IMG/VR virus record: IMGVR_UViG_3300045988_162372
Length of the DNA: 64,000 nucleotides
DNA from: a virus
Direction: 5' to 3' (one strand)
The translations under genes were made by a program, and so were the position numbers. The notes below the pieces were generated by a model, which worked only from the letters and a program-made list of their open reading frames with translations, did not search any database and had not been told where the DNA came from. Of this stretch, positions 7,791 to 60,403 are shown piece after piece (the first letter of the stretch is position 1; every line of letters begins with the position of its first letter).

Positions 7791-9122
7791 ATGAAATTTG
7801 TAGAATTATTTGATAACGATATGAAACCAAAGTGGGATATAATAGAAAACATCCCACAGTTTGCAGCACTTAAGACAACCAAGCAAAGCAATACTTGGCA
7901 TAAAGAGGGTGATGCTCTTAGGCATACACGGCTTGTTGTTGAAAATATGCAAAGAGAATTGGATGAACAGAATATTGACAATCATTCTGCATATTATCTT
8001 GTAATGATGTCTGCCGCACTTTGTCATGACTTAGGCAAGGCAACTTCAACCAAATGGGATAAAGAGAAGAATGACTATGTATGTAATCATCATGGACAAG
8101 CAGGTGAGAATATTACCCGTATGTTGTTTTATGATGAGAAATTTATCATAAGGGAACTTGTATGCTATATGGTACGTTGGCATATGAATTTACATCATAT
8201 CTTGGATGATGAGGAAAAAGTTGATGAGAAACTGATAAATATGGCTCACGGATGGGTATCAATTCAAGATATGTTACTTCTCAACAAATGTGATTCTCTT
8301 GGAAGCCAGAATGACATTGAAACAAGAGAATTCCTTGAGAACAGATGGGATACCATTAAGGAAAGAGCAGAGAAGTTGGATGTATTTGATATGGTCTATG
8401 ATGATTATAATACGAAACATATATGTGAAAATCTGAATACTGCCCTAAATGCATCTAATCCAATTGCTCCATTTTCATTTATGACACTAAATTGGAGGGA
8501 TGTGCGAGAGTCTTGTAGTAATATATTGAGGCATACTCCTATAAATTGGAAAACAAATAATATAAAGATATTAAATCAATTCACTGTCTTTATGATGGTA
8601 GGTATTCCTGGAAGTGGTAAAGATACTATTATACGAAAATACTTAAATGATATTCCAACTGTATGTAGAGATGATATCCGCACTGAAATAGGTATTCAAG
8701 GAGAGAAGCCTATGGGTAATAAAGAACAGGAGAAGAAAGTGACTCAAATATTCGAGGAAAGAATGTTGGAATATTGCAAACAAGGTAAGAGTTTTGTTAT
8801 TAATAATACAAACCTTAAAAAGCAATACCGTAACAGATTCTTGGATATCATAAAGCCTTATAAACCAGTCGTGATTTATATTTATGTGGAAGCTCCGTCA
8901 ATAGTTGATAATTTTGCAAGACGTGCTGGACAAATAGATAAGGATATAATACGCAGGATGGCTTCAAACTTTGATTTCCCTTATCCTACGGAATATACTA
9001 CTTTGTGGCTCGATATACAAGGTGAACCACAATTCACTGAAATATATGGTAACGCAATGATGAGTCATATAATTCAAGATATGATGCAACCAAGAAAGAA
9101 GAAAGATGAACAAGAACATTAA
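7791..9122 (+). CDS. HD-domain phosphohydrolase fused to P-loop (polynucleotide-kinase-like) kinase
   Basis: N-terminal WHKEGDALRHT and AALCHDLGKA (HD motifs); C-terminal MMVGIPGSGKDT Walker A. Confidence 0.7.
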   Translation: MKFVELFDNDMKPKWDIIENIPQFAALKTTKQSNTWHKEGDALRHTRLVVENMQRELDEQNIDNHSAYYLVMMSAALCHDLGKATSTKWDKEKNDYVCNHHGQAGENITRMLFYDEKFIIRELVCYMVRWHMNLHHILDDEEKVDEKLINMAHGWVSIQDMLLLNKCDSLGSQNDIETREFLENRWDTIKERAEKLDVFDMVYDDYNTKHICENLNTALNASNPIAPFSFMTLNWRDVRESCSNILRHTPINWKTNNIKILNQFTVFMMVGIPGSGKDTIIRKYLNDIPTVCRDDIRTEIGIQGEKPMGNKEQEKKVTQIFEERMLEYCKQGKSFVINNTNLKKQYRNRFLDIIKPYKPVVIYIYVEAPSIVDNFARRAGQIDKDIIRRMASNFDFPYPTEYTTLWLDIQGEPQFTEIYGNAMMSHIIQDMMQPRKKKDEQEH

Positions 9123-14622: not shown

Positions 14623-16167
14623 ATGACAAAAGAAATTTTCACGCTGTCAGAAAATGCGAAACTGGAATATTCTTGTACAGTAGTTCAAATTGGGGAAGTA
14701 AAACCTGTTGAAGGTTCAGACTTTCTTGGTTCAACACTAGTAAATGGTAATCCTATAGTTGTGCGCAAAGACCAAATCAAGGAGGGTGATATAATGATAT
14801 ATGCCCCTATTGAAACTGTGCTTAACAAACAATTTCTCTCTGTAAACAACCTATTTGAAATTGGAGAAAAAGAACTGAATTCAAATTTTAAGGAAGTTCA
14901 AGCACTTATCAATGAGGGAAAGAAAGAAGATGCTAAGAAAAAGGTGGGCTTCTTTAATAAGCATGGTCGTGTGAAGCTTATCCGCTTGCGTGGGTGTCCG
15001 TCTATGGGTTTCCTTATTGAAAAGGAGTCACTTGTAAAGTGGAAACCTAAGTTGCAGGACGTTGATTTCTCTCAATACGTGGATAAGGACTTTGATACCA
15101 TTGATGGGGAACTCTTTGTCAAGGTATATGTGCCTTATGTACCACCTATAAGAACAAGGGATAAATCAGCAAAACGAGACAAGAAATTAAAAAGATTTTC
15201 AAGACTTATTGAAGGTGAATTTAAGTTTCATTACGATACACAACAACTTGCTCGTAACATTCATCTGATTAAGCCAGATGATAAAGTGTTAATAACCAAC
15301 AAATTACATGGCACGAGCTTCATTTGCGCTAACATATTGACAAAGAAACCTGTTCAGCTTTCCAACATTCAAAAGCTCTTTAACAAGATGTCTAATAAAA
15401 AGATTAAGAAGTTAAAAAAGCAGAATGCTACTCACTATGCAGATAAGAAAAGATTGGAAAATCAAATCAAGCAGTATGAAAAGATTAAGAGACCTACATA
15501 TACTGTCGGATATGGTAATATCTATTCTTCTCATACTGTCATTAAAAATCAGTATATTAATAGTGGTGTAAATAGTGGCTTCTATGGAGTGGATATTTGG
15601 GGAGTATACGATAAGATTATGAAACCTTATATTCCACAAGGTATGACGTTGTATGGCGAAATCTGCGGTTATCTTGACGCTACTGGCAAGATGATACAGA
15701 AGGGTTACGACTATGGCTGCAAAGTAGGCGAAAATTTTTTGATGCCGTATCGTATCACCACTACAAAAGAAGACCATACTAAGAAGGAATGGACTGTGAA
15801 AGAGGTATATGATTGGACTGTCAAACTCTTGAAAGAACATCCTGAATTAAAAAAGAATGTAAGACCTATTACAATTCTTTACAGTGGTACATTAAAGGAC
15901 TTGTATCCAGAAATTAGTGTTTCTGATCATTGGCATGAGAATGTTCTTGAAACTATGAGAAATGATAAGGAACATTTCGGAATGGAAGAGCTTGAACCTG
16001 AATGTATCAATAAAGTTCCGAGAGAAGGAATTGTCTTGAGAATTATGGAAGACCCTGTGGCTGAGGCATTTAAGTTGAAGAGTTTCCGCTTTCTTGACAG
16101 AGAGAGGTCTGAAATGGACAAGGGACAAGTTGATATGGAAATGGCTGATGCCTACACTGAACAATAA
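14623..16167 (+). CDS. RNA ligase with N-terminal OB-like domain
   Basis: NKLHGTSF (motif I variant), LYGEICG (IIIa), EGIVLR (IV) and FKLKS (V). The N-terminal part is VVQIGEVKPVEGSDFLG... Confidence 0.65.
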   Translation: MTKEIFTLSENAKLEYSCTVVQIGEVKPVEGSDFLGSTLVNGNPIVVRKDQIKEGDIMIYAPIETVLNKQFLSVNNLFEIGEKELNSNFKEVQALINEGKKEDAKKKVGFFNKHGRVKLIRLRGCPSMGFLIEKESLVKWKPKLQDVDFSQYVDKDFDTIDGELFVKVYVPYVPPIRTRDKSAKRDKKLKRFSRLIEGEFKFHYDTQQLARNIHLIKPDDKVLITNKLHGTSFICANILTKKPVQLSNIQKLFNKMSNKKIKKLKKQNATHYADKKRLENQIKQYEKIKRPTYTVGYGNIYSSHTVIKNQYINSGVNSGFYGVDIWGVYDKIMKPYIPQGMTLYGEICGYLDATGKMIQKGYDYGCKVGENFLMPYRITTTKEDHTKKEWTVKEVYDWTVKLLKEHPELKKNVRPITILYSGTLKDLYPEISVSDHWHENVLETMRNDKEHFGMEELEPECINKVPREGIVLRIMEDPVAEAFKLKSFRFLDRERSEMDKGQVDMEMADAYTEQ

Positions 16168-21990: not shown

Positions 21991-22029
21991 AAAAAACAGA
22001 TACTTAAATCAGTATCTGTTTTTTTTTTT
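21991..22029 (+). terminator. Rho-independent terminator (A-run / hairpin / T11)
   Basis: AAAAAACAGATACT-TAAATC-AGTATCTG followed by 11 T. Confidence 0.85.
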
Positions 22030-22072: not shown

Positions 22073-23057
22073 ATGTGTTTAATTACTTCACAATTTAAAG
22101 CATATACACCTACAAGCGAGATAACGGCATATAAACTTGTCAAGAAAGCGACTAACAAGGAAAATATCTATTATTCTCCATTTCAAGGAGCTGTATATGA
22201 TTTTAATTCAAAAACTTCTCCCATACAATTATCAACTGGTAAAAAGAAAGAAACTGCTTCGACAAATCATGGTAATAAGAATTCATGGGGGGGGGTGGCT
22301 TCATGCTTTGCTTAATCCAAGCGAATACCCTTTATATCAAGACAAATATGTTATTCTAAGAGTAACAATACCCACATACCATGAAGATAATGATGGAAAT
22401 AGAATTGACACTGTTGTTTATATTTCAGACAATATGAATGAAATATGTACTAATAATATGAACATCTATAATGAAGTAATAGATATAAATTCTGCAAAGG
22501 TTAATTTATCAAGTGTTCCAATAAATTTTGAATTACCAGAAGGCATTAACATATCTTATAGTGGCAACAATATTAATCTTACTGTCAATTCACATAGCTA
22601 TACATTAGTAACAAGTTCTCCTAATTTTAATTCTTCTGTACAATGGGCAAAAGTTAAACCTGCTTCTGACATTATATCTGAATTTACTGATTTGCCTCAA
22701 TCCTACAAAGCAGCTAAACAATACTTCAATGGTAAAAATGATACCTCTATCATTAAACAGCTAGAAACAGAATACGAAAGGAAAAATAATAACAATATAT
22801 GTTATGAAGCAATAACAAAACTACAAGATGGGGAATATTTGCCTTCAATTGGCGAATTAAATGAGATAATTCAATATCAACATTACATTAACTACGAATT
22901 AAAACGTAATAACTCTGATAAACTTATCCAAAATGCTACATATTTTAGTAGCACACCATATTCGATTAATAATGTGTGGACTGTTAATGCAGAATATCTG
23001 ACGATATATAATTACTATTCAAGACAGAACAAATGTCTATTCTTACCTGTTAGATAA
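22073..23057 (+). CDS. DUF1566-like (lectin-fold) protein, frame broken at a G9 tract
   Basis: The N-terminal frame (22073..22315) and C-terminal frame (to 23057) are joined by removing one G from 22287-22295. The C-terminus has YLPSIGELNEI...TYFSSTPYSINNVWTV...LFLPVR, which resembles DUF1566. Confidence 0.6.
22287..22295 (+). repeat. Homopolymer G9 inside a coding sequence
   Basis: Counted directly: attcatGGGGGGGGGtgg. Confidence 0.95.
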
Positions 23058-25589: not shown

Positions 25590-26714
25590 TTATTTCACCA
25601 TTGCCGTCATTGCCGACTCAAGCTCTTTTTCAACCTTAATGATTTCTTCTTCCGTTGCTTTCCTATTTTTGGTTGCTTCCTCATGGATTGCTTGTACTTC
25701 TTTCAGCGTTTCGATGAGTCTTGCAGTAGTGGTACGCAGGGTTTCCACATCAACGACACTTCTTTCACTTTCTTTAGCAACATATATACTGTTTTGTTTC
25801 AAAAGTTCAGAATTCTTCAAAAGAATTTGATTAGTAGTATCACTGATTTTCTTCTGTGCATCAATGTTATTCTTCTGATTGTTCAACGCAACAGCAATTG
25901 ATAGCTGGTTTCTCCACACTGGAATTGTTGTGGAAATAATGCTTTGAGCTTTGTCTGCAACTGAAAGATTGTTATACTGTACAGTTCTAATCTGTGGAAG
26001 TGATTGTTTGATGACATATCTAAGTGTAAACATATCATTCAAACGCCTTTCAAGATTATTCTTGAACACTTGTGTATCTTGTATCTCAGTGGCAGTATAT
26101 TTGTCAGGATTCTGTTCCATATCTTGAATGGAACTTTCTAATTCTTCTACCTTTATCTTTCCTGCGATGATAAGTTCCTCAATCTGTTGACCATATAGAA
26201 TATTATTATCGAACATAACCTGCAAGGCATTATTATCACGTAAAGCAAGCATTCGCATTGCAGTAATCTTCTTGGATATTTCATCCACGTTCTGTGCAAT
26301 GCTGTCATATTTCTTCATTATCTTTTCAACTGATTTTACTAAATTCTTCAAAATAGGTATTCTACTGAGGAATTTCTTGATAGGTGATATATCCTCAAAA
26401 TCATCAAGCTCAACATAGCCAAGTTCAGTAAGTAAGTTGTCCACCAATGTGCCGATTTCTCCACACTTTGATGTCCTTACAGCATTCAAGAAATCATTGG
26501 AATACTTCGTCATAGAAGTCTGCAAATCAGAGCCAAAACTTGATACCGAGTTAATGTCTTTGACGACAAGACAAGAATTCAATCTGTTATATTTAGCTTT
26601 TTCCTCTTCTGTTAAGTTTGCAAGATTAATCTCTCCGTTCTCGCTTACTCTTTTTACCAATGCATTAGTAACTATTTTCTCTTTGTTTTCGATATTGTTG
26701 TTGTTATTTTCCAT
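25590..26714 (-). CDS. telA: TelA/YaaN-like toxic-anion-resistance family protein
   Basis: LTEEEKAKYNRL...VSSFGSDLQTSMTKYSNDFLNAVRTSKCGEIGTLVDNL parallels the TelA N-terminal region; 374 aa is the typical length. Confidence 0.7.
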   Translation of the reverse strand: MENNNNNIENKEKIVTNALVKRVSENGEINLANLTEEEKAKYNRLNSCLVVKDINSVSSFGSDLQTSMTKYSNDFLNAVRTSKCGEIGTLVDNLLTELGYVELDDFEDISPIKKFLSRIPILKNLVKSVEKIMKKYDSIAQNVDEISKKITAMRMLALRDNNALQVMFDNNILYGQQIEELIIAGKIKVEELESSIQDMEQNPDKYTATEIQDTQVFKNNLERRLNDMFTLRYVIKQSLPQIRTVQYNNLSVADKAQSIISTTIPVWRNQLSIAVALNNQKNNIDAQKKISDTTNQILLKNSELLKQNSIYVAKESERSVVDVETLRTTTARLIETLKEVQAIHEEATKNRKATEEEIIKVEKELESAMTAMVK

Positions 26715-36388: not shown

Positions 36389-36531
36389 AATAATATAAAA
36401 TTACTTTGCTTTGCTTTATTTTAATATAAATATTAAAACGTAAACTTATAAATAACTAAATTGTACTTCTATTGATTCTATTTCTAAGACAATCGTAACG
36501 TTTTCATTTGAAAAAAAAAAATCTCAAATCG

Positions 36532-38328: not shown

Positions 38329-38817
38329 TTAATTTTGTTTCTTATTTAAAATCTTAATTACTTCATCGGCTTTTTCTTTCGTCAAACCACCATAATAGGC
38401 ATCACAATTGACAAAATTGTCTTTCTGTTCATATAACATATCAATATCGTCATCAATGATGCAATAGCTCTCTATTTTATCTTCTGGATGTTTATCAAGG
38501 TAGTCCTCCATATATTTCTTAATTTCCAATCCTCTTATTGTACCCAAATATGGAGTTATCTCAAAATCTAATGGACTACCTCTAAAACCTACATTCTTTA
38601 GAATGCTTCTTAAACCATCAGTATGTCTCCAAGAGCTTGATATGACAGTCTTAGCACTTGTCTCCTGAATGATTCTCATATATTGCTTAACAGCTTCTGG
38701 GTCAAATTCTGATAAAGGATATGGTCTTACATCTCCACTCTCCGCACGTTTCCTATAATACGTTTCTGAATTAAAGACTCCATCCACGTCAATGAATATA
38801 ATCTTAATTTTACTCAT
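38329..38817 (-). CDS. HAD-superfamily phosphatase
   Basis: IIFIDVDGVFNSE is HAD motif I (DxDG). This N-terminal pattern is seen in HAD domains associated with RNA-repair proteins. Confidence 0.6.
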   Translation of the reverse strand: MSKIKIIFIDVDGVFNSETYYRKRAESGDVRPYPLSEFDPEAVKQYMRIIQETSAKTVISSSWRHTDGLRSILKNVGFRGSPLDFEITPYLGTIRGLEIKKYMEDYLDKHPEDKIESYCIIDDDIDMLYEQKDNFVNCDAYYGGLTKEKADEVIKILNKKQN

Positions 38818-39451: not shown

Positions 39452-40317
39452 TTAATAATTCGTAATGAAGACCTCATCTGTACTTTTAGACTTGTTTTTT
39501 GCATGGTAACTGCAATTTCCGTAGCTATGATTAAAATGATGTACGTTATACTTCTTTGACCATTCAATCAACATTTCATTCTTGTTTCCCTTGTTTTCAA
39601 ACACATTGGATAAACCAAATCTTATTTCTCTTTCATTGAGATTATCCAATAATTCATATAATTGTCTCTCCTGTGTTTCATTCCATCCGTCCTGCTCATT
39701 GTATGAGGCACAAGTTATCAAATAAGGTGGGTCGCAATATACATAATCATCCTTTGACAACTTATCAACCTTTAATTCTGTGAAAGATTTATTTGTAAAT
39801 ATTACATCTTTTATTGTCTTATGGAAATTAATCAGATTCTGTTCTATTGTCTTATTAAATTGACTTCTATTCTTTCCAAACGGCATGTTATATTCGCCTT
39901 TTGAATTAAACCTTATCTGATGATTAAATGAGTAACATATCAAAACGAATAAGTCTATTGGATCTTTTTCTGTACTTTTATTATACATATTCCTGAAAAC
40001 ATTATAGCTTTCCTGATTATCTATTGTAAGATTATATTCCTCTATTTTGGAATATATTTCCTTTAAAATGTCATCAAGTGCCCTTGTCTGAAATGTCTTA
40101 AATATATCAATAACTGACCCGTTAATGTCATTGGCTATACGTTTCTTGGCATTGACATTTGCAACTACATTTCCACCACCAGTAAATAAATCTACAAACG
40201 TATTTATTTCATTTTTATGGGGGGGGGGAGTAAAATTATTGGTAATAGCTGTGGTAGCAATTTGTATTTTCCACCTGTGTAATTGAGTGGTGATTTAATC
40301 AATTTATTTCCATCCAT
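39452..40317 (-). CDS. dam: T4-Dam-like DNA adenine methyltransferase, frame broken at a C10 (G10 on +) tract
   Basis: The N-terminal fragment (ATG 40317) reads MDGNKLIKSPLNYTGGKYKLLPQLLPIILLPPP.. and stops at 40204. The downstream frame reads ..TFVDLFTGGGNV..YCDPPYLITCASYNE..KKYNVHHFNHSY..TDEVFITNY. The two frames join with 11 or 8 C but not with 10. Confidence 0.8.
40219..40228 (-). repeat. Homopolymer C10 (G10 on + strand) inside the dam coding sequence
   Basis: Counted directly: tttatGGGGGGGGGGag. Confidence 0.95.
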
Positions 40318-40335: not shown

Positions 40336-40367
40336 CAAAAATACAACAAGTTTTACTTATAAACAAA
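40336..40367 (-). promoter_or_regulatory. Bacteroidota-type promoter for dam (minus strand)
   Basis: The + strand has CAAAAATA at 40336-40343, a 20-nt gap, then CAAA at 40364-40367, 19 nt upstream of the ATG at 40317. Confidence 0.65.
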
Positions 40368-40532
40368 TATACTATGTTAAACAAAATAAAAATACCACCG
40401 TATTTCACAACAAAGTGGTATCATGATTTAGGCTTTTACCAAGTTCTAACAACAAAAGATATTTGACTATGCCTTTAATATTGCAAATGTACTACCTTTG
40501 TGTTAAACTGCAAAATATTTTCTTGACTTTTT

Positions 40533-41738
40533 TCAATCTTTTATCTCAAAAACGTCTTTAGCAGTAACTTGTTTCGGCTTTTCTTTCCTGTTTATCTTTT
40601 CATATTTCTCATCAATAATTATCAAATCTTTCCATTTGTCAAGTAGACCTGAATTATTAAGAAAGAATTTCCTTATGTTGTAAGTGTTATAATGCTTCAT
40701 ATAACCAATATACGAGTTAACGGTCATTATAAGTTTATCCAATCTCTTTTCATCAGGATTATTGAATAAGTTTCTCAATTTATAATACAATGAACCTTTT
40801 GTTCTATTCAAAACATATATTCTATTGGGTTTTATAACACTTCCAATAAACTGCACACCTTTTGTATAATGTTGAAAATATCTTTTATTTGGATGAATTG
40901 TCAATTTCAATTCCCTTTGGGCAAATTCAATTATCTTGTCCACCGAACTTTTCAATTTCTCTTTATCCGAGGATACTATCATAAAGTCATCAACATATCT
41001 GCCATAATATTTAAAACCAAGCGTTTCCTTGATAAATCTATCGAGTTTTGTCAAAAAGAAATTGGCAAAAATCTGTGATGTCAAATTACCAATGGGTAGT
41101 CCTCTTTCATATCCTACATTAAACAAACTCTTATTGGAGTCTAATTTAGCCCATAACGACTGGTCACCTCTTTTCTCGCAATTTAATTCTGGATGATGTA
41201 GAACAATCTGTTTGCATAATTCCCTAAGTTTCTCTTTCTTCCTATCATTTTCATAATATTCCACAATAAAATCGTCTATCATATCAGCCAATAACTGCTT
41301 ATTAATGCTCATAAAGAACGACTTTATATCCATCTTTAAAATCCAAGCATCCTTTGTATAATTCTCGGTACATTCCTTTATATACTCAAACATTGTTTTA
41401 ACGCCATACAATACACCCTTGCCCTCCATACACGAAAAGCTTTCTTTGATAAAATATTTTTCAAAATATGGCATTAATTCCTTGATGACAAGATGGTGTA
41501 CAATTCTATCCCTGAAATCGGCAGCAAATACCTCACGATAAACTGGAAATGTAACAACAAATGCTATTGACTTACCAATTTCGTATGTTCCATCGTTAAT
41601 ATCATCACATAAACGTGTGACTTTTTCTATATAGTCAATTTCGAACTCTCGTGCATTACTTGTATTTCTTTTGTTCTTAATACAATCTTCATACGCCTCG
41701 AAAACCTCACCGTAGCTAAAACAATATGCTTTTGCCAT
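40533..41738 (-). CDS. DGR reverse transcriptase
   Basis: YGRYVDDFMIVS (YxDD motif) and LPIGNLTSQIFANFFL (the (I/L)GxxxSQ motif characteristic of DGR RTs); immediately downstream of TR. Confidence 0.9.
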   Translation of the reverse strand: MAKAYCFSYGEVFEAYEDCIKNKRNTSNAREFEIDYIEKVTRLCDDINDGTYEIGKSIAFVVTFPVYREVFAADFRDRIVHHLVIKELMPYFEKYFIKESFSCMEGKGVLYGVKTMFEYIKECTENYTKDAWILKMDIKSFFMSINKQLLADMIDDFIVEYYENDRKKEKLRELCKQIVLHHPELNCEKRGDQSLWAKLDSNKSLFNVGYERGLPIGNLTSQIFANFFLTKLDRFIKETLGFKYYGRYVDDFMIVSSDKEKLKSSVDKIIEFAQRELKLTIHPNKRYFQHYTKGVQFIGSVIKPNRIYVLNRTKGSLYYKLRNLFNNPDEKRLDKLIMTVNSYIGYMKHYNTYNIRKFFLNNSGLLDKWKDLIIIDEKYEKINRKEKPKQVTAKDVFEIKD

Positions 41739-41981
41739 ATAGTGTTTATGAATTAATTATTTTATACATAAATAAAGGTTGGCTGTAAATTATAGCCAAC
41801 CAAATCATCCTTTTTGGGGATTAATTTCTGTAAAAAAACAGCCTGTGCATTTTATAATCAAAGGAAGGACGCACGTAATTGCTATTCCACTTATTGTTCC
41901 AATTGTTCAGATTCGCATTGTTCGTATTGCAATTCCAAGCATTCGTGGAGCTATTCTCGGCAGAAGCCCAGTAATTCGTAC
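41739..41981 (-). ncRNA. DGR template RNA region (TR plus a 120-nt spacer up to the RT start)
   Basis: No credible ORF. It contains TR and a spacer with the hairpin GGTTGGCT(41777-41784)/AGCCAACC(41794-41801). Confidence 0.55.
41859..41981 (-). repeat. DGR template repeat (TR)
   Basis: 123 bp matching 42729-42851 (offset 870). All 20 mismatches are T on the + strand, which is A on the sense strand, in TR. Confidence 0.9.
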
Positions 41982-42152
41982 ATTGTGCTATCTGGAATAC
42001 ATCAATCAAGACATATTATTAACGACCCTTTCGAGCTGTGTAGCACCCTTATAAAATTTCGCCGAATGGGATTCGGTAATCTTTCACAAGCTTCGGTCTC
42101 TCCTGTTTGCATGATTTTCTAATCACTTAACGCAAAACAAAACTCTGCCTTT

Positions 42153-42542
42153 TCAATGATAAATAGTTTCTTGTTTTGAAAAATTTGCGGTTTTTTCGGT
42201 AAAACCTCTCCATTTTATGAATTGTTCATGTATATTTTTCATCAATGGGTAAATGTTGGAAAATTCCTTTGCACTTAATAGCTTTAAATCTATACATAAT
42301 TTCATGCACAACTTTATATTCTCAAAATAACACTGGAATTGTTTCATATATTTTAATCTCTCTGACATATTCTCCGTAGTGTTAATTATGTTAATCAAAG
42401 ACAACATTCTAATTGCAGATCGTTTTGCTTCTTCACCAATTATATATTTATAAGATTTATTAATTTTATTTATTTTCGGTAATAATAATTTTACCATCTC
42501 ATAGGAGTCAACAAAAATCTGTAGTTTTGTATAATGTCCCAT
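42153..42542 (-). CDS. avd: DGR accessory variability determinant (Avd-like four-helix-bundle protein)
   Basis: 129 aa, helical, lying between the target and TR as in BPP-1. The pattern LQIFVDSYEMVKLL..K..KYIIGEEAKRSAIRM.. resembles Avd / S23-IVS family proteins. Confidence 0.7.
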   Translation of the reverse strand: MGHYTKLQIFVDSYEMVKLLLPKINKINKSYKYIIGEEAKRSAIRMLSLINIINTTENMSERLKYMKQFQCYFENIKLCMKLCIDLKLLSAKEFSNIYPLMKNIHEQFIKWRGFTEKTANFSKQETIYH

Positions 42543-42590
42543 AATACTTGTTTCATTTTTTATTTTTATTATTTATGTGGAAATTAAAAG

Positions 42591-42621
42591 TTCTATGCGC
42601 TCGCTACACTCACGCATAGAA
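42591..42621 (-). promoter_or_regulatory. Stem-loop between target gene and avd
   Basis: TTCTATGCG/CGCATAGAA 9-bp stem with a 13-nt loop. Confidence 0.55.
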
Positions 42622-42644
42622 ACTTCAGCCTTTCATTACAATTA

Positions 42645-42668
42645 ATTGTGGGGATTTATCCCCACAAT
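42645..42668 (-). promoter_or_regulatory. GC-cored 10-bp stem / 4-nt loop hairpin downstream of VR (candidate DGR target-recognition hairpin or terminator)
   Basis: ATTGTGGGGA-TTTA-TCCCCACAAT, 44 nt past the target stop codon and 60 nt past the VR end. Confidence 0.6.
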
Positions 42669-42711
42669 AAACAAGCGTTGCTTGCTAAATACGCTTAAGG
42701 CTAATAGAGGC

Positions 42712-45354
42712 TTAATCAGCCTCAATAGCAAAGGAAGGACGCACGTAATAGCTACCCCACTTAATGCCCCAAAAGCCCAGAAGCGCATAGTTCGTACCGC
42801 AATGCCAAGCATACGTGGAGCTACCCTCGGCAGAAGCCCAGTAAGTCGTACCATCTCTCATTGGATAGCAATTTCCTGTAGTATAACCACCTTCACCTGC
42901 AATAATCTTATCACATGCTTTCTTTATAAGATACATTTGAGTAAATTGATCCCATAAATCTGCTCCGTCAGGTAAGAAACAACGTTTATTGGCAACACTA
43001 CCAGAACCGTGTGATGTAAGATTGTACATATTTACGAATTCCACTGCATCATACTTATCAGTACCAGTCTTCAAGTAGCCACTTTCTGCTGTATATGTCG
43101 CCATACTTTTATCTACACGCCAATCATTGATAGCCTTTGTATATGCTTCACCATTATAACGAGTGGTATTTCTAGTTGCTGTTGCACCTTCTTCATCCCA
43201 TGTAAATTTATTGTAGCCAACTTCTACATTTGATGTATTGGTAATCGTTGTGATATCCTCAGCATTTACTTGTCCATTCGTCCACTGTCTTGTAGTGTCG
43301 TTTAATACAGTTGCATAAATCTTATGAACCGCACCACCCGCATCACTTGCAACTACGTTGCCAGCACCATTTGCAATAGTCGGTGTTGAAACAGTAGGAT
43401 TAATATAAGTATCTGCATACACAATACCAATGGGTACATTACTTGAACTATATTTATAGTCTTTAGGATCTACCATCGTGTTATCGGCAAGAACAATTGC
43501 ACCAACTTTACCTTCAGAGAATTTTCTGTTGCCATCACCTCCTAATTCAAGACAAACAGTATTATTATCGGAAAGATTTGTTTTTGCAAAAGCACCATAC
43601 CATCTTTGAATACCTTCATAAGTATTCCAATCAGGATTAGCTTCTGGAAGAGCAGATGCAAGTGCTGTACATCCGCCAAAAATGCCTCTTGCATTAGCAA
43701 CCTTCAAGTTTGCAAGACAAGTTGCAGGAATTGAAGTAAGACTTGTGCAGTTACCAAACATTCTTTCCATCATAAGGTTTTTACCAGTCATTGCTTCAAG
43801 CAATCCACTAGGAATTGAAGTAATACCGCTACCATAGAAAGCATCTCTACAGTTAATATTATCTGACTTGATATTATAGAAAGCATCAGAAGCAAATCCT
43901 GTAATACCCTTACAGTTGTAGAAAGCCTGTCTCATATCAGTTAATTTACTTAAACCTCCAATAAATTCTCTATCAACTGTACCAGTGATCGATGTACAAC
44001 CATAGAATAAACGATATATAGTCGTTACATTAGGACAATCAGCGAACAAATCAGATGAAATCTCACCATTCATTTTTGAACAATTTGCAAATACTTCTGA
44101 CGCATTCGTAAGTGCTGTTAACCCTGCAAACATTCCAGTAGGTATTGAGCCAGTCATATTGGTATTATAAGCAAACATACCTGCTACGGTTGTTACGTTA
44201 GGACAACCATCAATTATTTTAATAGGTATAGGCTCTGTTAATCCTGTGCAATCTCTAAAAGTATAAGAAAAGTCTGTTGCTTTTTCACATCCACTAAACA
44301 ATCCTTTATTAGTATTTGCATTAAACGGCAAACTCTTTAATGAAGTACATTTTCTAAATGCATATGAAAAACTGGTAACATCAATGAACGAGTTAGTAGT
44401 GTCATACATAGGGATATCAGCTAGTTTACTACATCCTCTAAATGCTGATTCCATATTTGTAAGCAATGTATTACCCCACGCAATAACAGCAATTAAATAA
44501 TTTCTCATTGCATAATTGTCACTATTAACGATATTAGTACCATCAGAATCCTGAACATATTCACCATCTTCAACCCAATTGGATTGATCATCGCCTTGTG
44601 TATAAATTCTCTTGTAAGTACCATTGATAGTTACGTCATATACACCTGCACTTGCATAAGTATGCCAAATAGCTGCTTTATTATCAGCATAAGATTTTGC
44701 TTCATCAAAAATGCATTCAGGACTACCATCACCCCAGTCAACCGTATAACTATAAGTTGCTGTTGTACTTGGTTCAAAACTACCATCATCGCCGACTGAC
44801 ATTGTTGAGATACCGCTCTCTGTAACGCTATAGCCTAAATTTTCAGCAGCAGCTATGAATTCAGCAGCTTCTTCTTCCGAAAGATAATTATCAATATCAT
44901 TCATAGGAATAGTAAAGTTACCATCCATGATGGTATTCCCATATACATCCTGAATTAAATGTTCACTATAATCTGGCTCATTATCTACAGGTTCTGCTGT
45001 ATCGCCAGGATTTAAGTCCATAGTTGCAGGATCCATAGCAATAAGTTCTTTTGCAATCGTATTTAACGTTGCACCATTGTTACCTGCTACACCAAACTGC
45101 ATAGGAAGTACAACTGTACGTTTGTATGTCGTTGTAGCTTCTGGAATTTGGAATTCCAACACCATAGCGTTGGCACTTTTCAAACGTCTGATAAGTTCTG
45201 CATAACGGGCAAATGTTTCCGTATCACTCACATTAGTAATACCATTAAAACGCAACGCATTTGCAATATCTTCTTTTGAGCTTGCAATATTTGCCTTTGC
45301 ACCTTCAAGCTCCTGATATACAGCTTCAAGTTTTGTTTTTATTACGTTCGACAT
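42712..45354 (-). CDS. DGR target: tail-fibre/receptor-binding-like protein with BspA-type LRRs and a C-terminal lectin-fold (DUF1566-like) variable tip
   Basis: 880 aa. The central part has repeats of the form F..C..L..IP (AFRGCSKLADIP, AFRKCTSLKSLP, FRDCTGLTEPIP, FANCSKMNGEI, FYGCTSITGTV, FYNCKGITGF). The C-terminus is TYWASAEGSSTYAWHCGTNYALLGFWGIKWGSYYVRPSF. Confidence 0.8.
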   Translation of the reverse strand: MSNVIKTKLEAVYQELEGAKANIASSKEDIANALRFNGITNVSDTETFARYAELIRRLKSANAMVLEFQIPEATTTYKRTVVLPMQFGVAGNNGATLNTIAKELIAMDPATMDLNPGDTAEPVDNEPDYSEHLIQDVYGNTIMDGNFTIPMNDIDNYLSEEEAAEFIAAAENLGYSVTESGISTMSVGDDGSFEPSTTATYSYTVDWGDGSPECIFDEAKSYADNKAAIWHTYASAGVYDVTINGTYKRIYTQGDDQSNWVEDGEYVQDSDGTNIVNSDNYAMRNYLIAVIAWGNTLLTNMESAFRGCSKLADIPMYDTTNSFIDVTSFSYAFRKCTSLKSLPFNANTNKGLFSGCEKATDFSYTFRDCTGLTEPIPIKIIDGCPNVTTVAGMFAYNTNMTGSIPTGMFAGLTALTNASEVFANCSKMNGEISSDLFADCPNVTTIYRLFYGCTSITGTVDREFIGGLSKLTDMRQAFYNCKGITGFASDAFYNIKSDNINCRDAFYGSGITSIPSGLLEAMTGKNLMMERMFGNCTSLTSIPATCLANLKVANARGIFGGCTALASALPEANPDWNTYEGIQRWYGAFAKTNLSDNNTVCLELGGDGNRKFSEGKVGAIVLADNTMVDPKDYKYSSSNVPIGIVYADTYINPTVSTPTIANGAGNVVASDAGGAVHKIYATVLNDTTRQWTNGQVNAEDITTITNTSNVEVGYNKFTWDEEGATATRNTTRYNGEAYTKAINDWRVDKSMATYTAESGYLKTGTDKYDAVEFVNMYNLTSHGSGSVANKRCFLPDGADLWDQFTQMYLIKKACDKIIAGEGGYTTGNCYPMRDGTTYWASAEGSSTYAWHCGTNYALLGFWGIKWGSYYVRPSFAIEAD
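42729..42851 (-). repeat. DGR variable repeat (VR)
   Basis: It covers the last ~41 codons of the target ORF. 13 of the 14 TR AAY codons are altered here. Confidence 0.9.
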
Positions 45355-53048: not shown

Positions 53049-54110
53049 TCAAATTAATGCACTATCATACTCATTTACAACATCAAAAGCTTGTCTGAAC
53101 TCTTTCACTCTATCCATTTCATCGCAATGTGTAAGTTCAAGTTCAAATTTATATCCTTTAGCATCATTGTTTATCCTATTTTTTAAGGATGAGATGTCTA
53201 ATTTGCCATATCTAAAAATACCTTGATTTTCATTATAATGGTTTGTCCTATCCTCTTTTATATCTTTTGATAACTCTTGTCTTTGCGTATGATTTTCCAT
53301 CTCACCATCACCGTGCCTAGTAAGATACGGTCTGGTTACATAATGCGCTGTAACTTCTTCAACGTTCTTAATTTGTTTTACTATTTCCAAAGAATATGCT
53401 ATACCAGTATTAGACGGCGTAGTATCAGCAGTATCTTTCCCTGTATCAGAAAGTAATAATCCTTGACCATTTTCAAAGATTAAGTTCTCATATTCAAGAG
53501 TGTCAATAGGCTGTACAATTGTTTTCTCTTTCATGAAATAACAATCATTGATAAAATGCTTTTGCAGAACTACAGAATTCCAAATAGGTAGCCATGCGCC
53601 TCTTATCGTCAATTCTTTCTCATAGTATGCCTTAACCTTATTAAGATAGGCTATCTTATCGTCTAACCTAATGAACTCATCAAATAATAAATTTAACCCA
53701 CTATTCCATCTTCTTATAGTATTCCAGATTCCCATTCCACAAGAAGCCTTTCTTTTTCTTTGCTGTTCAGAAATAAGGTTTGCCAACGCATCATAAGGAG
53801 TTGACCATCTACATCTTGCATCCCTATATATGCGTTTTGGCTTTACAATGAGTGAATTGTATTCATTCACAAATTGGATAGGGTTAAGAATAAAAAAGCA
53901 AGAATAATAATTGTCAGCACCGTAATATGTTCCAGCTCCAAAATGTTGGAATGTAATATTTCCATCTTCTGTTAATATAGAATGCCCCCTTTGAGAACCC
54001 CCATTAGTAAGGACATTCAATACATTGTTAGAACACTTACTATATCTTGCAACTACAGTACCTTTACCTTCATCACCATAATTTGCTCCAATTACTATCC
54101 TTGCTTTCAT
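53049..54110 (-). CDS. Short adenylosuccinate-synthetase-family protein (PurA/PurZ-like)
   Basis: IVIGANYGDEGKGTVV (the PurA P-loop GDEGKG), NGGSQRGHSI and SCGMGIWNT parallel PurA motifs. At 353 aa it is shorter than bacterial PurA. Confidence 0.65.
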   Translation of the reverse strand: MKARIVIGANYGDEGKGTVVARYSKCSNNVLNVLTNGGSQRGHSILTEDGNITFQHFGAGTYYGADNYYSCFFILNPIQFVNEYNSLIVKPKRIYRDARCRWSTPYDALANLISEQQRKRKASCGMGIWNTIRRWNSGLNLLFDEFIRLDDKIAYLNKVKAYYEKELTIRGAWLPIWNSVVLQKHFINDCYFMKEKTIVQPIDTLEYENLIFENGQGLLLSDTGKDTADTTPSNTGIAYSLEIVKQIKNVEEVTAHYVTRPYLTRHGDGEMENHTQRQELSKDIKEDRTNHYNENQGIFRYGKLDISSLKNRINNDAKGYKFELELTHCDEMDRVKEFRQAFDVVNEYDSALI

Positions 54111-56626: not shown

Positions 56627-56794
56627 TCACTTTTTCTTCTTAATTATAGGAAGATTGCCTTGTCTTTTATAATAACACAGATCACACATATTCCTTGCAA
56701 CTGTCATTCTATATCCTCGAATACTATAATAAGTGTTTGTTACATTGCATATAGGGCATTTCCATGCTTTGTGACAATAATCATTTCTTATCAT
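56627..56794 (-). CDS. Hypothetical zinc-ribbon small protein (55 aa; below ORF-track cutoff)
   Basis: Hand translation gives MIRNDYCHKAWKCPICNVTNTYYSIRGYRMTVARNMCDLCYYKRQGNLPIIKKKK. It has CxxC pairs and overlaps the upstream stop. Confidence 0.45.
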   Translation of the reverse strand: MIRNDYCHKAWKCPICNVTNTYYSIRGYRMTVARNMCDLCYYKRQGNLPIIKKKK

Positions 56795-58178
56795 TTTTAA
56801 ATTGTTTAATTTTATTCAATAATTCTTCCTTTGTTATCTTTGGATTGACAAACGCAAATTTCATTAGCCAATACAAACATTCCTTAACCTTTGCGCAGGG
56901 TTCAATTCCTAACGCTTTCATTACATCATTGCCATTTACAGGTAATTTATAGTTTCCCATGCTCATACCTTCCTTCTTAAACTCTTCCAAACGTTTAATA
57001 ATATTCTCTACCTGACTTGGCATACAATATTCAGGACTATGAGCATTGTTATCAGCATCAATCAATTCAAGGCACTTCATCATATTGTCCCCAAGTTCAT
57101 ATTGCATTTTCCTGAGTGTCTTGTCTTTCATATGGTTACAATTATCCCCAAAGTTTTTCGTTCTCATGTGGTTTTTAACCAAAATCTGCACTGTTTTAAT
57201 GAAATCATTGGAATACTTCAAACGTCTGAGAATTGTATCGCACATCTCAGCAGAAACAAGTTCATGCTTATAGAAATGTACATTGCCATTATCATCAACA
57301 GTTCTTGTCTTGATTTTACCGATATCATGCAATAATGCTGCCATACGAAGTTGCAAATCATTCCTTGTATTCTCAACAACTTTCAATGTATGTTCCCAAA
57401 CATCTCCAAAATGGTACTTGTTTTGACTGAGATTATAAGTTTTTTCCAATTCAGGAATAACATATTTCATTGCACCAATGTCTTTTATAAGGTTCAATGC
57501 CATTACAGGATTATCGCAAACAAGCATTTTATTAAATTCATCTTGAATACGTTCTTTGGTAATAATTGAAAGTCTATCCACATTTCTTTTCATACCCTCA
57601 AAGGTTTCTTTCTCTATTTTCCATCCATAACGACTTGAGAAACGACACACCCTAAGTATCCTTAAAGGATCATCCAAAAATATCACGTCGGGTTCACTTG
57701 TTGTTCTAATTATATGATTTTTAATGTCACTATAACCCCTATCAGTTAAATCCAAATATACATTCTTTGAGATATCATAATACAAGGAATTAATTGTTAA
57801 ATCTCTCCGTTTGCAATCCTCTTCAATACTTCCAAATACAACTTCTGGATTACGACTATTTTTATCCTTATATTGTTCCTTTCTTGTCTGCACAACTTCC
57901 AATTCAATATCAGGAAACGCCGCCAATTGAAACATTGCAGTACCGTATGTAGGATATACAACTGGTTCATGTGTGAGCAACTTTTCTTTATATAACCAAT
58001 TGGCAAAGTCAATACCTCCATCAGGCAAATCAATACAAAGGTCAATATCTTTTATTTCGTGTCCTAAAATCTCATCACGGACACATCCACCAACTGCAAA
58101 ACAGTGGTTTTCAAACAAAGTGCCTTCAATAATGTCTTGAAGATAATCACATATCTGTATGTATAATTCGTGTGCCAT
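56781..58178 (-). CDS. cca: tRNA nucleotidyltransferase (CCA-adding enzyme) with HD domain
   Basis: FAVGGCVRDEILGHEIKDIDLCID (GGxVRD...DxD head) and AALLHDIGK (HD). Confidence 0.85.
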   Translation of the reverse strand: MAHELYIQICDYLQDIIEGTLFENHCFAVGGCVRDEILGHEIKDIDLCIDLPDGGIDFANWLYKEKLLTHEPVVYPTYGTAMFQLAAFPDIELEVVQTRKEQYKDKNSRNPEVVFGSIEEDCKRRDLTINSLYYDISKNVYLDLTDRGYSDIKNHIIRTTSEPDVIFLDDPLRILRVCRFSSRYGWKIEKETFEGMKRNVDRLSIITKERIQDEFNKMLVCDNPVMALNLIKDIGAMKYVIPELEKTYNLSQNKYHFGDVWEHTLKVVENTRNDLQLRMAALLHDIGKIKTRTVDDNGNVHFYKHELVSAEMCDTILRRLKYSNDFIKTVQILVKNHMRTKNFGDNCNHMKDKTLRKMQYELGDNMMKCLELIDADNNAHSPEYCMPSQVENIIKRLEEFKKEGMSMGNYKLPVNGNDVMKALGIEPCAKVKECLYWLMKFAFVNPKITKEELLNKIKQFKNDKK

Positions 58179-59071: not shown

Positions 59072-60403
59072 CTATTTCAATTTTAATTGTTCTTTTCTGA
59101 TGTTGATCAGCAAATCATTTACAAATTCAACGTCAATATCTTCTGGGAGAGTAGATGCAGCAATAGCTTCATCCATTACCTTTTTACGTTCATCAAGCAT
59201 TGATATTACTTCATCATACTCATACTTATGATTTTTTACATCAAGCAAAAATTCTCTATCTATTCCACGTCTATTAACTATGAAACCCTTACCTTGTGCA
59301 ATCTCCGTACACATTGCAATAAGTCTGAAAGCATGTGATACATTCTTCGCATCATAATTTTTATTCAAATTGCTTTCATAACGTACTGGATTACGATGTT
59401 TTTCCCAATCTTTATAATCCCGATAATCAATACAATGCTTCTGATAACCTGTCTGATTGTAACTAACCCAACAGATAGGTTTTTCTCCTTTTGAAACAGA
59501 GGAAAGGCGTAGTTCGTTAGACATTCCATCTTCACCTACCATTCCTTTGTAACCAATAGGTATTTGCTTATTGTACCAATTACACAATTGTAAAACATTA
59601 TGTATATCATAAAAATCTCTAATGAAATCCACCAAATTACAGAGCTGTTTTATACGATATTTACGAAGTAAATCCTCATTTTCCCCACTTCCTTTTATTT
59701 CAGCAACAATATCTTTCATTTCATATTTGTATATTTCATTATAAGCGTTGTCTTTCTGAAAGATATTACTCAAAGTAAGTAAATCTATTTCTTCATTTAA
59801 AAAGAAATTTCCCCAATCATAGTAACATCCATACACGTCATGCATATTCGGAATATTCACAAGTCCGCAATATTGCTGTTTCAACCCTCTATGTTCCAAC
59901 CAATTTTTAATGTTGCTACTACCTTGATTGTAAAAGGTATAAACAAAATCAAGAGGCTCAAGACGTTTTGTTACTGGGTTTACAATCTTCTTATTCAAAC
60001 CTCTACACTTGCGTATTTGTTCAACCGCATATCCCCCAAAAGGTTTAAAGCATTGCTTGGTTATGAATTTATCCCTATATTTCTTAAGCTCTGTCATAAT
60101 GGGATGTTCATATAATACTGCATTTCCATCCGCAAACAATGCTTCGAGAACAGTGGGGTTACTCTTAAGTAAAAGTAACATGAATTTGTTTAACTCATAC
60201 CACATAATATCATTAGTTTCATTATGTATCTCACTTTGATAATCCAATCCTAGACCAATAAGTTGCTCTGCTGGTGCTAAGTATACGCCTCCATAGTCTT
60301 CATCGGAAGATGGTGTACTAAGACCATATAAATGTGAACCTCTGCGGAACTCATATAACAATAAACCTTGTTTTTTAATGTCTTCAAATGTATATTTCTT
60401 CAT
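59072..60403 (-). CDS. Pol-beta-superfamily nucleotidyltransferase (PF10127-like, RNA-repair-associated 'RlaP' type)
   Basis: The N-terminus FRRGSHLYGLSTPSSDEDYGGVYLAP is the GSxxYG...SDxD pattern of that family. Confidence 0.6.
   Translation of the reverse strand: MKKYTFEDIKKQGLLLYEFRRGSHLYGLSTPSSDEDYGGVYLAPAEQLIGLGLDYQSEIHNETNDIMWYELNKFMLLLLKSNPTVLEALFADGNAVLYEHPIMTELKKYRDKFITKQCFKPFGGYAVEQIRKCRGLNKKIVNPVTKRLEPLDFVYTFYNQGSSNIKNWLEHRGLKQQYCGLVNIPNMHDVYGCYYDWGNFFLNEEIDLLTLSNIFQKDNAYNEIYKYEMKDIVAEIKGSGENEDLLRKYRIKQLCNLVDFIRDFYDIHNVLQLCNWYNKQIPIGYKGMVGEDGMSNELRLSSVSKGEKPICWVSYNQTGYQKHCIDYRDYKDWEKHRNPVRYESNLNKNYDAKNVSHAFRLIAMCTEIAQGKGFIVNRRGIDREFLLDVKNHKYEYDEVISMLDERKKVMDEAIAASTLPEDIDVEFVNDLLINIRKEQLKLK

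Follow-up and report, generated by a model that had tools for sequence, protein, structure and literature searches.

We analysed a stretch of viral DNA of 64,000 nucleotides (nt), taken from IMG/VR record IMGVR_UViG_3300045988_162372 and called the window below (one strand, positions counted from its first letter). On its minus strand, at 39452-40317, lies the gene of a T4-Dam-like N6-adenine DNA methyltransferase, which is split into two reading frames at a homopolymer of ten cytosines (C10). The features of this locus, located by reading both frames and by comparison with the Pfam family PF02086 and with T4 Dam, are as follows:

39452-40317, minus strand: T4-Dam-like (D12 class) N6-adenine DNA methyltransferase gene, present as a frameshifted (OFF) allele.
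40219-40228, minus strand: C10 homopolymer (G10 on the plus strand), coding for the proline run of the loop before motif I and variable in length.
40204-40317, minus strand: N-terminal reading frame of 37 codons plus TAA, bearing the Y-T-G-G-K motif.
39452-40218, minus strand: downstream reading frame with motif I (FTGGG), the target-recognition region, DPPY and a T4-Dam-like C-terminus; intact.

The open reading frame (ORF) starting at the minus-strand ATG at 40317 begins MDGNKLIKSPLNYTGGKYKLLPQLLPIILLPPP. It reads MDGNKLIKSPLNYTGGKYKLLPQLLPIILLPPPIKMK and terminates at a TAA at 40204-40206, 12 nt past the tract. In the adjacent frame the sequence continues after the tract with ..PPPHKNEINTFVDLFTGGGNV.., passes through YCDPPYLIT and reaches its stop at 39452-39454. 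The junction between the two frames is exactly the C10 run, within codons 29-32; at ten bases it surpasses the length of about 7 from which such repeats can slip. Setting the tract in silico to C11 yielded an open protein of 288 amino acids (aa) and setting it to C8 one of 287 aa; no open protein resulted from C9, C10 or C12. The first in-frame methionine past the tract, read from the sequence, is residue 109, which lies beyond motif I, so that a product restarted there would be devoid of the S-adenosylmethionine (AdoMet) site.

The repaired protein matches PF02086 with an E-value of 2.4e-35 and a score of 122.9 bits (cut-off 22) over profile positions 1-249 out of 253. Among solved structures T4 Dam (1yfj) ranks first, before E. 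coli Dam and DpnM, and aligns with residues 11 to 287, C-terminus included (E-value of 1.6e-53). The motifs follow the order of the alpha-group Dam enzymes, with YTGGK at 13-17, FTGGG at 45-49 and DPPY at 196-199, and they are invariant in the alignment of homologues. K17 of the methyltransferase aligns with K11 of T4 Dam. The residues aligned with K11, R116 and P126 of T4 Dam, reportedly GATC-contact residues (Horton et al. 2005), are conserved in the repaired protein. The enzyme of the repaired gene would probably methylate GATC. Taken together, the frames and the 1yfj alignment bear out an initial annotation of this DNA, made without database searches, which had proposed an N-terminal Y.GGK motif followed by a stop at 40204, a continuation one frame over with motif I, DPPY and a C-terminus close to that of T4 Dam, a break exactly at C10 and a repair by 11 or 8 C.

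The G+C content of the window is 31.8%. From dinucleotide shuffles, 0.01 run of at least 9 G/C is expected per window; two are observed, at 40219-40228 and at 22287-22295, and there is no further G/C run of 6 or more anywhere in the window.

Relatives of the gene were identified in a large protein collection. An intact 288-aa form (P0001) shares 99% identity with the repaired protein and stands in a cluster of 97 sequences. The 178-aa C-terminal ORF as it occurs in the window corresponds to P0005, with 48 distinct sequences indexed in 87 blocks. Both P0001 and P0005 lie on contigs of up to 352-371 kb. The DNA of 31 loci, originating from different studies and assemblers, at least 97% identical in nucleotide sequence and with identical flanks, forms what we call lineage A. 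In this lineage the tract occurs in at least nine states, in frame and out of frame, the latter in both alternative frames. They are listed below with the loci (L numbers) in which they were read:

ACT followed by C8: L013; in frame at the tract, in a gene with a second lesion.
ACT followed by C9: L012; out of frame.
ACT followed by C10: the window, L009, L011 and L018; out of frame.
ACT followed by C11: L003-L005 and L015; in frame, L015 having a second lesion.
ACT followed by C12: L006 and L008; out of frame.
A followed by C10: L021-L025; in frame.
A followed by C11: L010; out of frame.
ACCCCT followed by C7: L007; out of frame.
ACCCCT followed by C5 (locked, interrupted): L026-L033; in frame.

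The intact proteins of lineage A measure 286, 287 or 288 aa. Frameshifted relatives occupy either of the two other frames (spacers of 49, 50 and 52 nt), and the offset across the tract is not fixed, since relatives in frame, at +1 and at +2 all occur. Change in the tract outpaces that of the sequence around it. L008 (C12) and L009 (C10) have identical downstream coding sequences, the same holds for L007 and L010 with their differing tracts, and L012 (C9) is separated from L013 (C8) by 1 substitution over about 6.6 kb aligned. Intact (ON) and OFF alleles are interspersed among the haplogroups defined by single-nucleotide polymorphisms. For instance, the MKENALIK haplogroup holds the OFF loci L006, L008 and L009 together with the intact proteins P0132 and P0133. 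The initial annotation had looked to related genomes, where an uninterrupted gene with no homopolymer would speak against a switch; in these relatives the tract is present and its length varies.

Apart from the tract, the gene of the window is in good order. From FVDLF (motif I) to the stop, its protein of 248 codons is identical to that of the intact alleles L021-L025, from which it differs downstream of the tract by 0 non-synonymous and 2-6 synonymous changes. Within lineage A the ratio of non-synonymous to synonymous substitution rates (dN/dS) ranges from 0.03 to 0.3, pairs of two OFF alleles included. Because the downstream protein equals that of intact alleles and dN/dS is low, the window copy is considered a clean OFF allele, as opposed to a pseudogene in decay. 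In the OFF alleles L006-L010 and L019 (the latter from lineage B, described below) the remainder of the gene is likewise intact, unlike in L011-L015/L018 and L014.

The tract codes for part of a loop whose length is little constrained. T4 Dam shows a gap of 7 residues opposite PIILLPP of the repaired protein, and among 24 homologues the loop running from the invariant Pro31 to motif I varies from about 1 to 10 residues. AlphaFold modelling of the intact allele (mean pLDDT, the predicted local distance difference test, of 87; pTM, the predicted template modelling score, of 0.87) renders residues 29-37 as irregular, between a helix at 17-28 and a strand at 38-44, with a local dip in confidence. 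The linkers of intact lineage A proteins read LLPPPH, LLPPH, LPPPH, LPLPH, LPLHH and LPPH. Since the prolines of the tract sit in a variable and irregular loop, in-frame changes of tract length should be tolerated; naturally occurring variants with PP, PPP, PPPP and PLP point the same way. The idea of a length-tolerant poly-proline loop, already put forward in the initial annotation, thus agrees with the length variation among homologues, with the insertion relative to T4 Dam and with the modelled segment.

Two further lineages carry the tract. In lineage B, the homologue P0003 (68% aa identity), which has a different gene neighbourhood and no diversity-generating retroelement (DGR) upstream, reads TCA-CCC-CCC-CCC-CCC-CAT (C13) at exactly the same codon positions as the window tract. 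Within its cluster, C13 and C10 (L020) are in frame and C11 (L019) is frameshifted, the latter protein being called from a GTG at MDLFTGGG. In lineage C, the homologue P0016 (62% aa identity, on a contig of 24.8% G+C) has C11 at the same loop position, and its cluster comprises a contig on which an N-terminal ORF ending ..LLPPPPIGRNNW* right after the tract is paired with a 173-aa C-terminal ORF. Repeat-length polymorphism with in-frame and out-of-frame alleles is present in lineages A, B and C. Pure runs of C10 to C13 have been kept at the same position in these three diverged lineages. Between lineages A and B, synonymous sites are saturated (about 106 synonymous differences) and the non-synonymous divergence (dN) is 0.22. 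CCC is the rarest proline codon of the window (6.5%). Interrupted tracts are found elsewhere, namely C5AC5 in P0002, PPLP in P0106 and C4TC5 in P0121.

Of the 120 best cluster representatives, no more than 4 carry at least three prolines in the loop. Across this region in 80 more distant IMG/VR homologues (45-63% identity), C runs never exceed 4. All proteins with a proline run fall into one clade of a simple neighbour-joining tree, built with the loop masked and without support values, a placement that would fit an old origin followed by retention. Searching the INPHARED GenBank phages by blastn with the 1.2-kb region recovered no close relative, the only matches being methyltransferases of Lactococcus 949-group phages at about 68%. 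Among IMG/VR viral contigs there was no close relative either, the homologues being at most 63% identical and devoid of the tract. A gapped DNA pattern scan retrieved one locus from the JGI metagenome contigs (L018, C10, from the decayed lineage) and none from the GTDB genomes, so that no sign of a prophage copy exists in these species-representative genomes. Read from these sequences, a slippage-prone coding homopolymer yields in-frame and out-of-frame alleles of a conserved predicted methyltransferase in three lineages.

The other long G/C run of the window interrupts a second gene:

22073-23057, plus strand: second tract-broken gene, with a weak Lcl_C/DUF1566-like C-terminus and G9 at 22287-22295.

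The G9 run joins an upstream frame (ATG at 22073, ...NKNSWGG) to a 306-aa ORF ending at 23057, and G8 or G11 gives an intact protein of 327/328 aa. Intact relatives of 327-333 aa read NSWGGW, NSWGGGW or NSLGGGW, with NSLGAGW as an interrupted form; large clusters of 263-aa truncated calls read MVIRIHGGGGW (G12). The DNA alleles recovered were G8, G9, G12 and GGGGGGAGGG. Homologues at 56-57% identity contain no G run. Both tracts are OFF in the window, and their repairs are of opposite sign (+1 for C10, -1 for G9). With its intact and truncated relatives the G tract behaves like the C tract, and this counts in favour of a switch.

Palindromic sites are strongly avoided in the window. Observed against expected counts, the latter derived from trinucleotide frequencies, are 35/195 for GATC, 12/62 for CTAG, 111/256 for CATG, 18/48 for GGCC, 0/33 for CCGG and 0/19 for CGCG. 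GATC is thus five-fold depleted. Its depletion and the absence of CCGG and CGCG make restriction pressure on such sites plausible, and the avoidance as a whole suggests that this pressure may be heavy and may include the presumed target site of the methyltransferase.

We propose, with a probability of roughly 0.6, that the C run is a hypermutable contingency locus toggling the Dam of an AT-rich gut phage. The run itself is taken to be a real, heritable and slippage-prone homopolymer; it supplies two to four prolines to a loop at the protein surface, which connects the N-terminal helix with the strand leading into the AdoMet-binding motif FTGGG. Slipped-strand mispairing during phage replication would add or remove single C residues at high frequency and toggle the frame, and the gene would move between one intact frame (ON) and two broken frames (OFF), C10 in the window being an OFF state. 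Phage populations would in this way become mixed for Dam activity, and such mixtures could insure the phage against two opposite kinds of host, those restricting GATC when it is unmethylated and those restricting it when it is methylated. Methylation of the DNA of a burst would be set by the allele of the infecting parent, and for that reason the phenotype would lag one generation behind the genotype. Slippage of ribosomes or polymerases may leave the OFF alleles a slight residual expression. A bet-hedging role of the switch appears well motivated.

Neutral decay is the main rival to a switch. The gene would be dispensable, the C run its most mutable spot and the frameshifts the first step of its loss. 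Several observations speak for decay and against a switch. The lineage comprising L011-L015 and L018 shares a second, fixed 1-bp deletion about 150 nt past the tract (AACGGGTCAG to AAC-GGCCAG), and its tract still drifts from C8 to C11 despite this lesion. L014 has lost the promoter, the N-terminus and the tract, the 3' end of the reverse transcriptase (RT) gene being joined to the middle of the methyltransferase gene. From the fixed deletion and the 5' deletion of L014 it follows that the gene is dispensable and can decay. Truncated 144-aa calls are also present in the clusters, and intergenic A/T runs vary as freely as the tract: the non-coding A/T run at 36511-36521 has a length of 7, 8, 9, 10 or 11 in L003-L010, and the non-coding T run at 22019-22029 a length of 9-11 in the second-gene loci L034-L041. 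Homopolymer length differences are general in these assemblies, whether biological or technical, and some could be assembly noise. Length variation alone was dropped as a mark of a special C tract, since these control runs, which had been expected to be stable, vary too, and the case for the tract rests for the same reason on its composition, position and conservation. On the same side of the balance, the loci were retrieved by exact protein sequence, so their counts give no ON:OFF frequency; the tract lengths were read from assemblies, variation being scored between genomes; and the presumed GATC specificity of the enzyme rests on homology to T4 Dam. Neutral decay nevertheless seems unlikely, because a pure run of the rarest proline codon persists in three lineages with saturated synonymous sites, where interruptions should have built up as they did in P0121, P0002 and P0106. 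Outside the decayed lineage, moreover, the OFF alleles bear no further lesions and keep the low dN/dS given above, and they are interspersed with ON alleles among the haplogroups.

A sequencing or assembly error in the window seems quite improbable to us; the population sequenced would then possess an in-frame tract (C11 or C8), and C10 would be a miscall or a consensus drawn from a mixture. In favour of an error, reading mistakes are frequent in long G/C homopolymers, the assemblies disagree in homopolymer length whatever the base, and the window gene has no other flaw. However, the same 178-aa frameshifted call recurs in the 87 blocks and 48 distinct sequences of P0005, from different studies and assemblers, and the lengths C8 to C13 exceed a miscall of +/-1. 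The two tracts of the window would also need corrections of opposite sign, which disfavours a single systematic homopolymer miscall. As the frameshifted state is common in independent assemblies, an error in the window is no longer needed to account for it. Programmed recoding, in which C10 is functional and the full-length protein is made by -1 ribosomal frameshifting or RNA polymerase slippage, would be very surprising. On a C run, a tRNA-Pro shifted back by one base still pairs perfectly, and long homopolymers are sites of polymerase slippage. Some rescue of OFF alleles at a low level is plausible, and very little Dam may suffice for methylation. In-frame alleles are common, however, and out-of-frame alleles are found in both other frames. 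A stimulatory structure downstream was not seen either, no search aimed at one having been made. It is the occupation of all three frames by the relatives that makes recoding unlikely.

A switch of this kind can be compared with several known systems. Phasevarions are based on the Type III mod genes of Haemophilus, Neisseria and Moraxella, and homopolymer-bearing methyltransferases are known in Helicobacter and Campylobacter. The window gene resembles them in carrying a simple repeat towards the 5' end of a methyltransferase coding sequence, by the stochastic ON/OFF alternation proposed here and by the existence of locked interrupted alleles. They differ in being cellular genes, mostly of Type III or Type I, which re-programme the expression of their host, whereas the window gene is an orphan alpha-class phage Dam and does not belong to a Type III or Type I restriction-modification system in a cellular genome. 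The initial annotation had described the architecture as that of phase-variable methyltransferases. The coding homopolymer and the ON/OFF alleles support that description; the likeness does not extend to a Type III mod gene. T4 Dam (1yfj, 1q0s) shares the fold family, the motif order and a full-length alignment with the repaired protein, and differs from it by lacking the 7-residue loop insertion which holds the proline run and by having no homopolymer there.

Among phages, the closest parallel is agt of phage T2, in which frameshifts in an A run (about 9) toggle DNA glucosylation, as shown experimentally in this cultured coliphage, with a trade-off between escape from TgvAB and sensitivity to McrA/BC (Gomez, Barrick and Waters 2025, bioRxiv, PMC12633550). 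Both cases involve a phage DNA-modification enzyme, +/-1 frameshifts in a coding homopolymer and a proposed trade-off between modification-dependent and modification-sensitive restriction. T2 agt has A runs and encodes a glucosyltransferase, whereas here C10 to C13 runs lie in a Dam-type gene of uncultured gut phages, the evidence is comparative and the tract has been kept across lineages. Hypermutable coding polyG tracts of 7-11 with ON/OFF subpopulations are described in Fletchervirus, a Campylobacter phage (Sorensen et al. 2021, Cell Rep 35:109214, as cited in PMC12633550). This phage also combines an AT-rich genome with coding G/C homopolymers; according to that citation its tracts lie in receptor-binding proteins and not in a DNA methyltransferase, and the second tract of the window at 22287-22295 may be the closer analogue. 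PMC12633550 also mentions, citing Liu et al. 2004, a polyG tract within the methylase gene of BPP-1, a phage with a DGR. In the BPP-1 record we found G8 in bpm, the sole G/C run of at least 7 in that genome. This is again a DGR-carrying phage with a G run in a DNA adenine methylase gene; the enzyme is of the N6_N4 type (DPPY-first), the genome has 65% G+C, the tract lies mid-gene and it is not known to have been studied for switching.

Phage contingency loci are already documented. The candidate proposed here concerns a Dam-type enzyme, and the comparative support for the retention of its tract is unusually good. Orphan methyltransferases of phages are usually treated as fixed anti-restriction equipment, a view that a conserved switch would change. 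If the switch is real, gut phage methylomes would be heterogeneous by design, gene content would be an unreliable guide to host range where such genes are concerned, and automated annotation would systematically take them for pseudogenes or fragments. In the large protein collection, the methyltransferase gene figures mostly as its 178-aa C-terminal piece. Laboratory work has recently provided evidence for contingency loci in T-even phages; to this the present case would add evidence from natural populations of phages not in culture.

The surroundings of the methyltransferase gene comprise the following features:

40336-40367, minus strand: promoter motif of the Bacteroidota type (TTTG-N20-TATTTTTG), with its end 18 nt upstream of the ATG and conserved in the aligned relatives.
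40383-40422, minus strand: stable hairpin followed by a U run, a plausible terminator (minimum free energy of -15.3 kcal/mol, z = -2.6).
40533-41738, minus strand: RT of the DGR.
42153-42542, minus strand: bAvd-like gene of the DGR.
42712-45354, minus strand: DGR target gene of 880 aa with DUF285/BspA-like repeats.

Promoter motifs of this class number 19 in the window for 6.2 +/- 2.5 expected, a three-fold enrichment. The motif follows a Bacteroidota-type consensus. The gene had been credited in the initial annotation with a consensus promoter of its own 19 nt upstream. Such a promoter was recovered as the Bacteroidota-type motif, at a spacing of 18 nt, and a sigma-70 promoter scan around the methyltransferase gene detected nothing beyond chance. 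A simple terminator scan around the gene returned nothing above chance and did not pick up the hairpin at 40383-40422. It is plausible that the hairpin and U run insulate the methyltransferase from the DGR operon; with its own promoter motif, the methyltransferase would therefore be a separate transcription unit. A second Bacteroidota-type promoter motif was seen at 40484-40514 on the minus strand, directly after the RT stop, with the hairpin and U run about 60-90 nt further. It could mark a very short RNA made from the interval that separates the DGR from the methyltransferase, or be due to chance. An Rfam search of the whole window gave no match.

The DGR directly upstream of the methyltransferase, on the same strand (40533-45354), is complete. 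Its template repeat at 41859-41981 (123 nt) and its variable repeat at 42729-42851 differ by 20 mismatches, all located at template adenines. We put forward tentatively, and with rather less than even confidence, that selection has kept the poly-C Dam switch in several lineages of large gut phages, whose populations would be mixtures of GATC-methylating and non-methylating members and would thereby be epigenetically insured against host restriction systems of opposite action, virion methylation trailing the genotype by one generation, and that together with a poly-G switch and an active DGR it would form three layered diversification devices.

No restriction gene (no res, no hsd) adjoins the methyltransferase in the window, and the enzyme is on this ground considered an orphan. 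Downstream of it lie small ORFs and RNA-repair-type genes (HAD_SAK_2 and others). In the other phages with the locked ACCCCT+C5 allele (L026-L033), the Dam gene adjoins a second methyltransferase gene (N6_N4_Mtase), and in L039, which carries a relative of the second-tract gene, a PF05869 Dam-family gene lies two genes upstream. These phages therefore carry several DNA methyltransferases.

A 353-aa protein encoded at 53049-54110 on the minus strand resembles adenylosuccinate synthetases and matches the PurZ-type family phrog_1211 (1.7e-35). The idea of a Z-genome drawn from this match is doubtful, the protein retaining the PurA GDEGKG motif and having weak matches to cellular PurA structures only. 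A TelA-like gene is found at 25590-26714. Genes of RNA-repair or tRNA-maintenance type occur in the window at 7791-9122, 14623-16167, 38329-38817, 56781-58178 and 59072-60403, the types being HD plus AAA_33 kinase-like, RNA ligase, HAD_SAK_2, the CCA-adding/polyA polymerase family and RlaP. Relatives also carry Thg1. Judged from the gene content, this set would fit a large phage countering tRNA-targeting defences.

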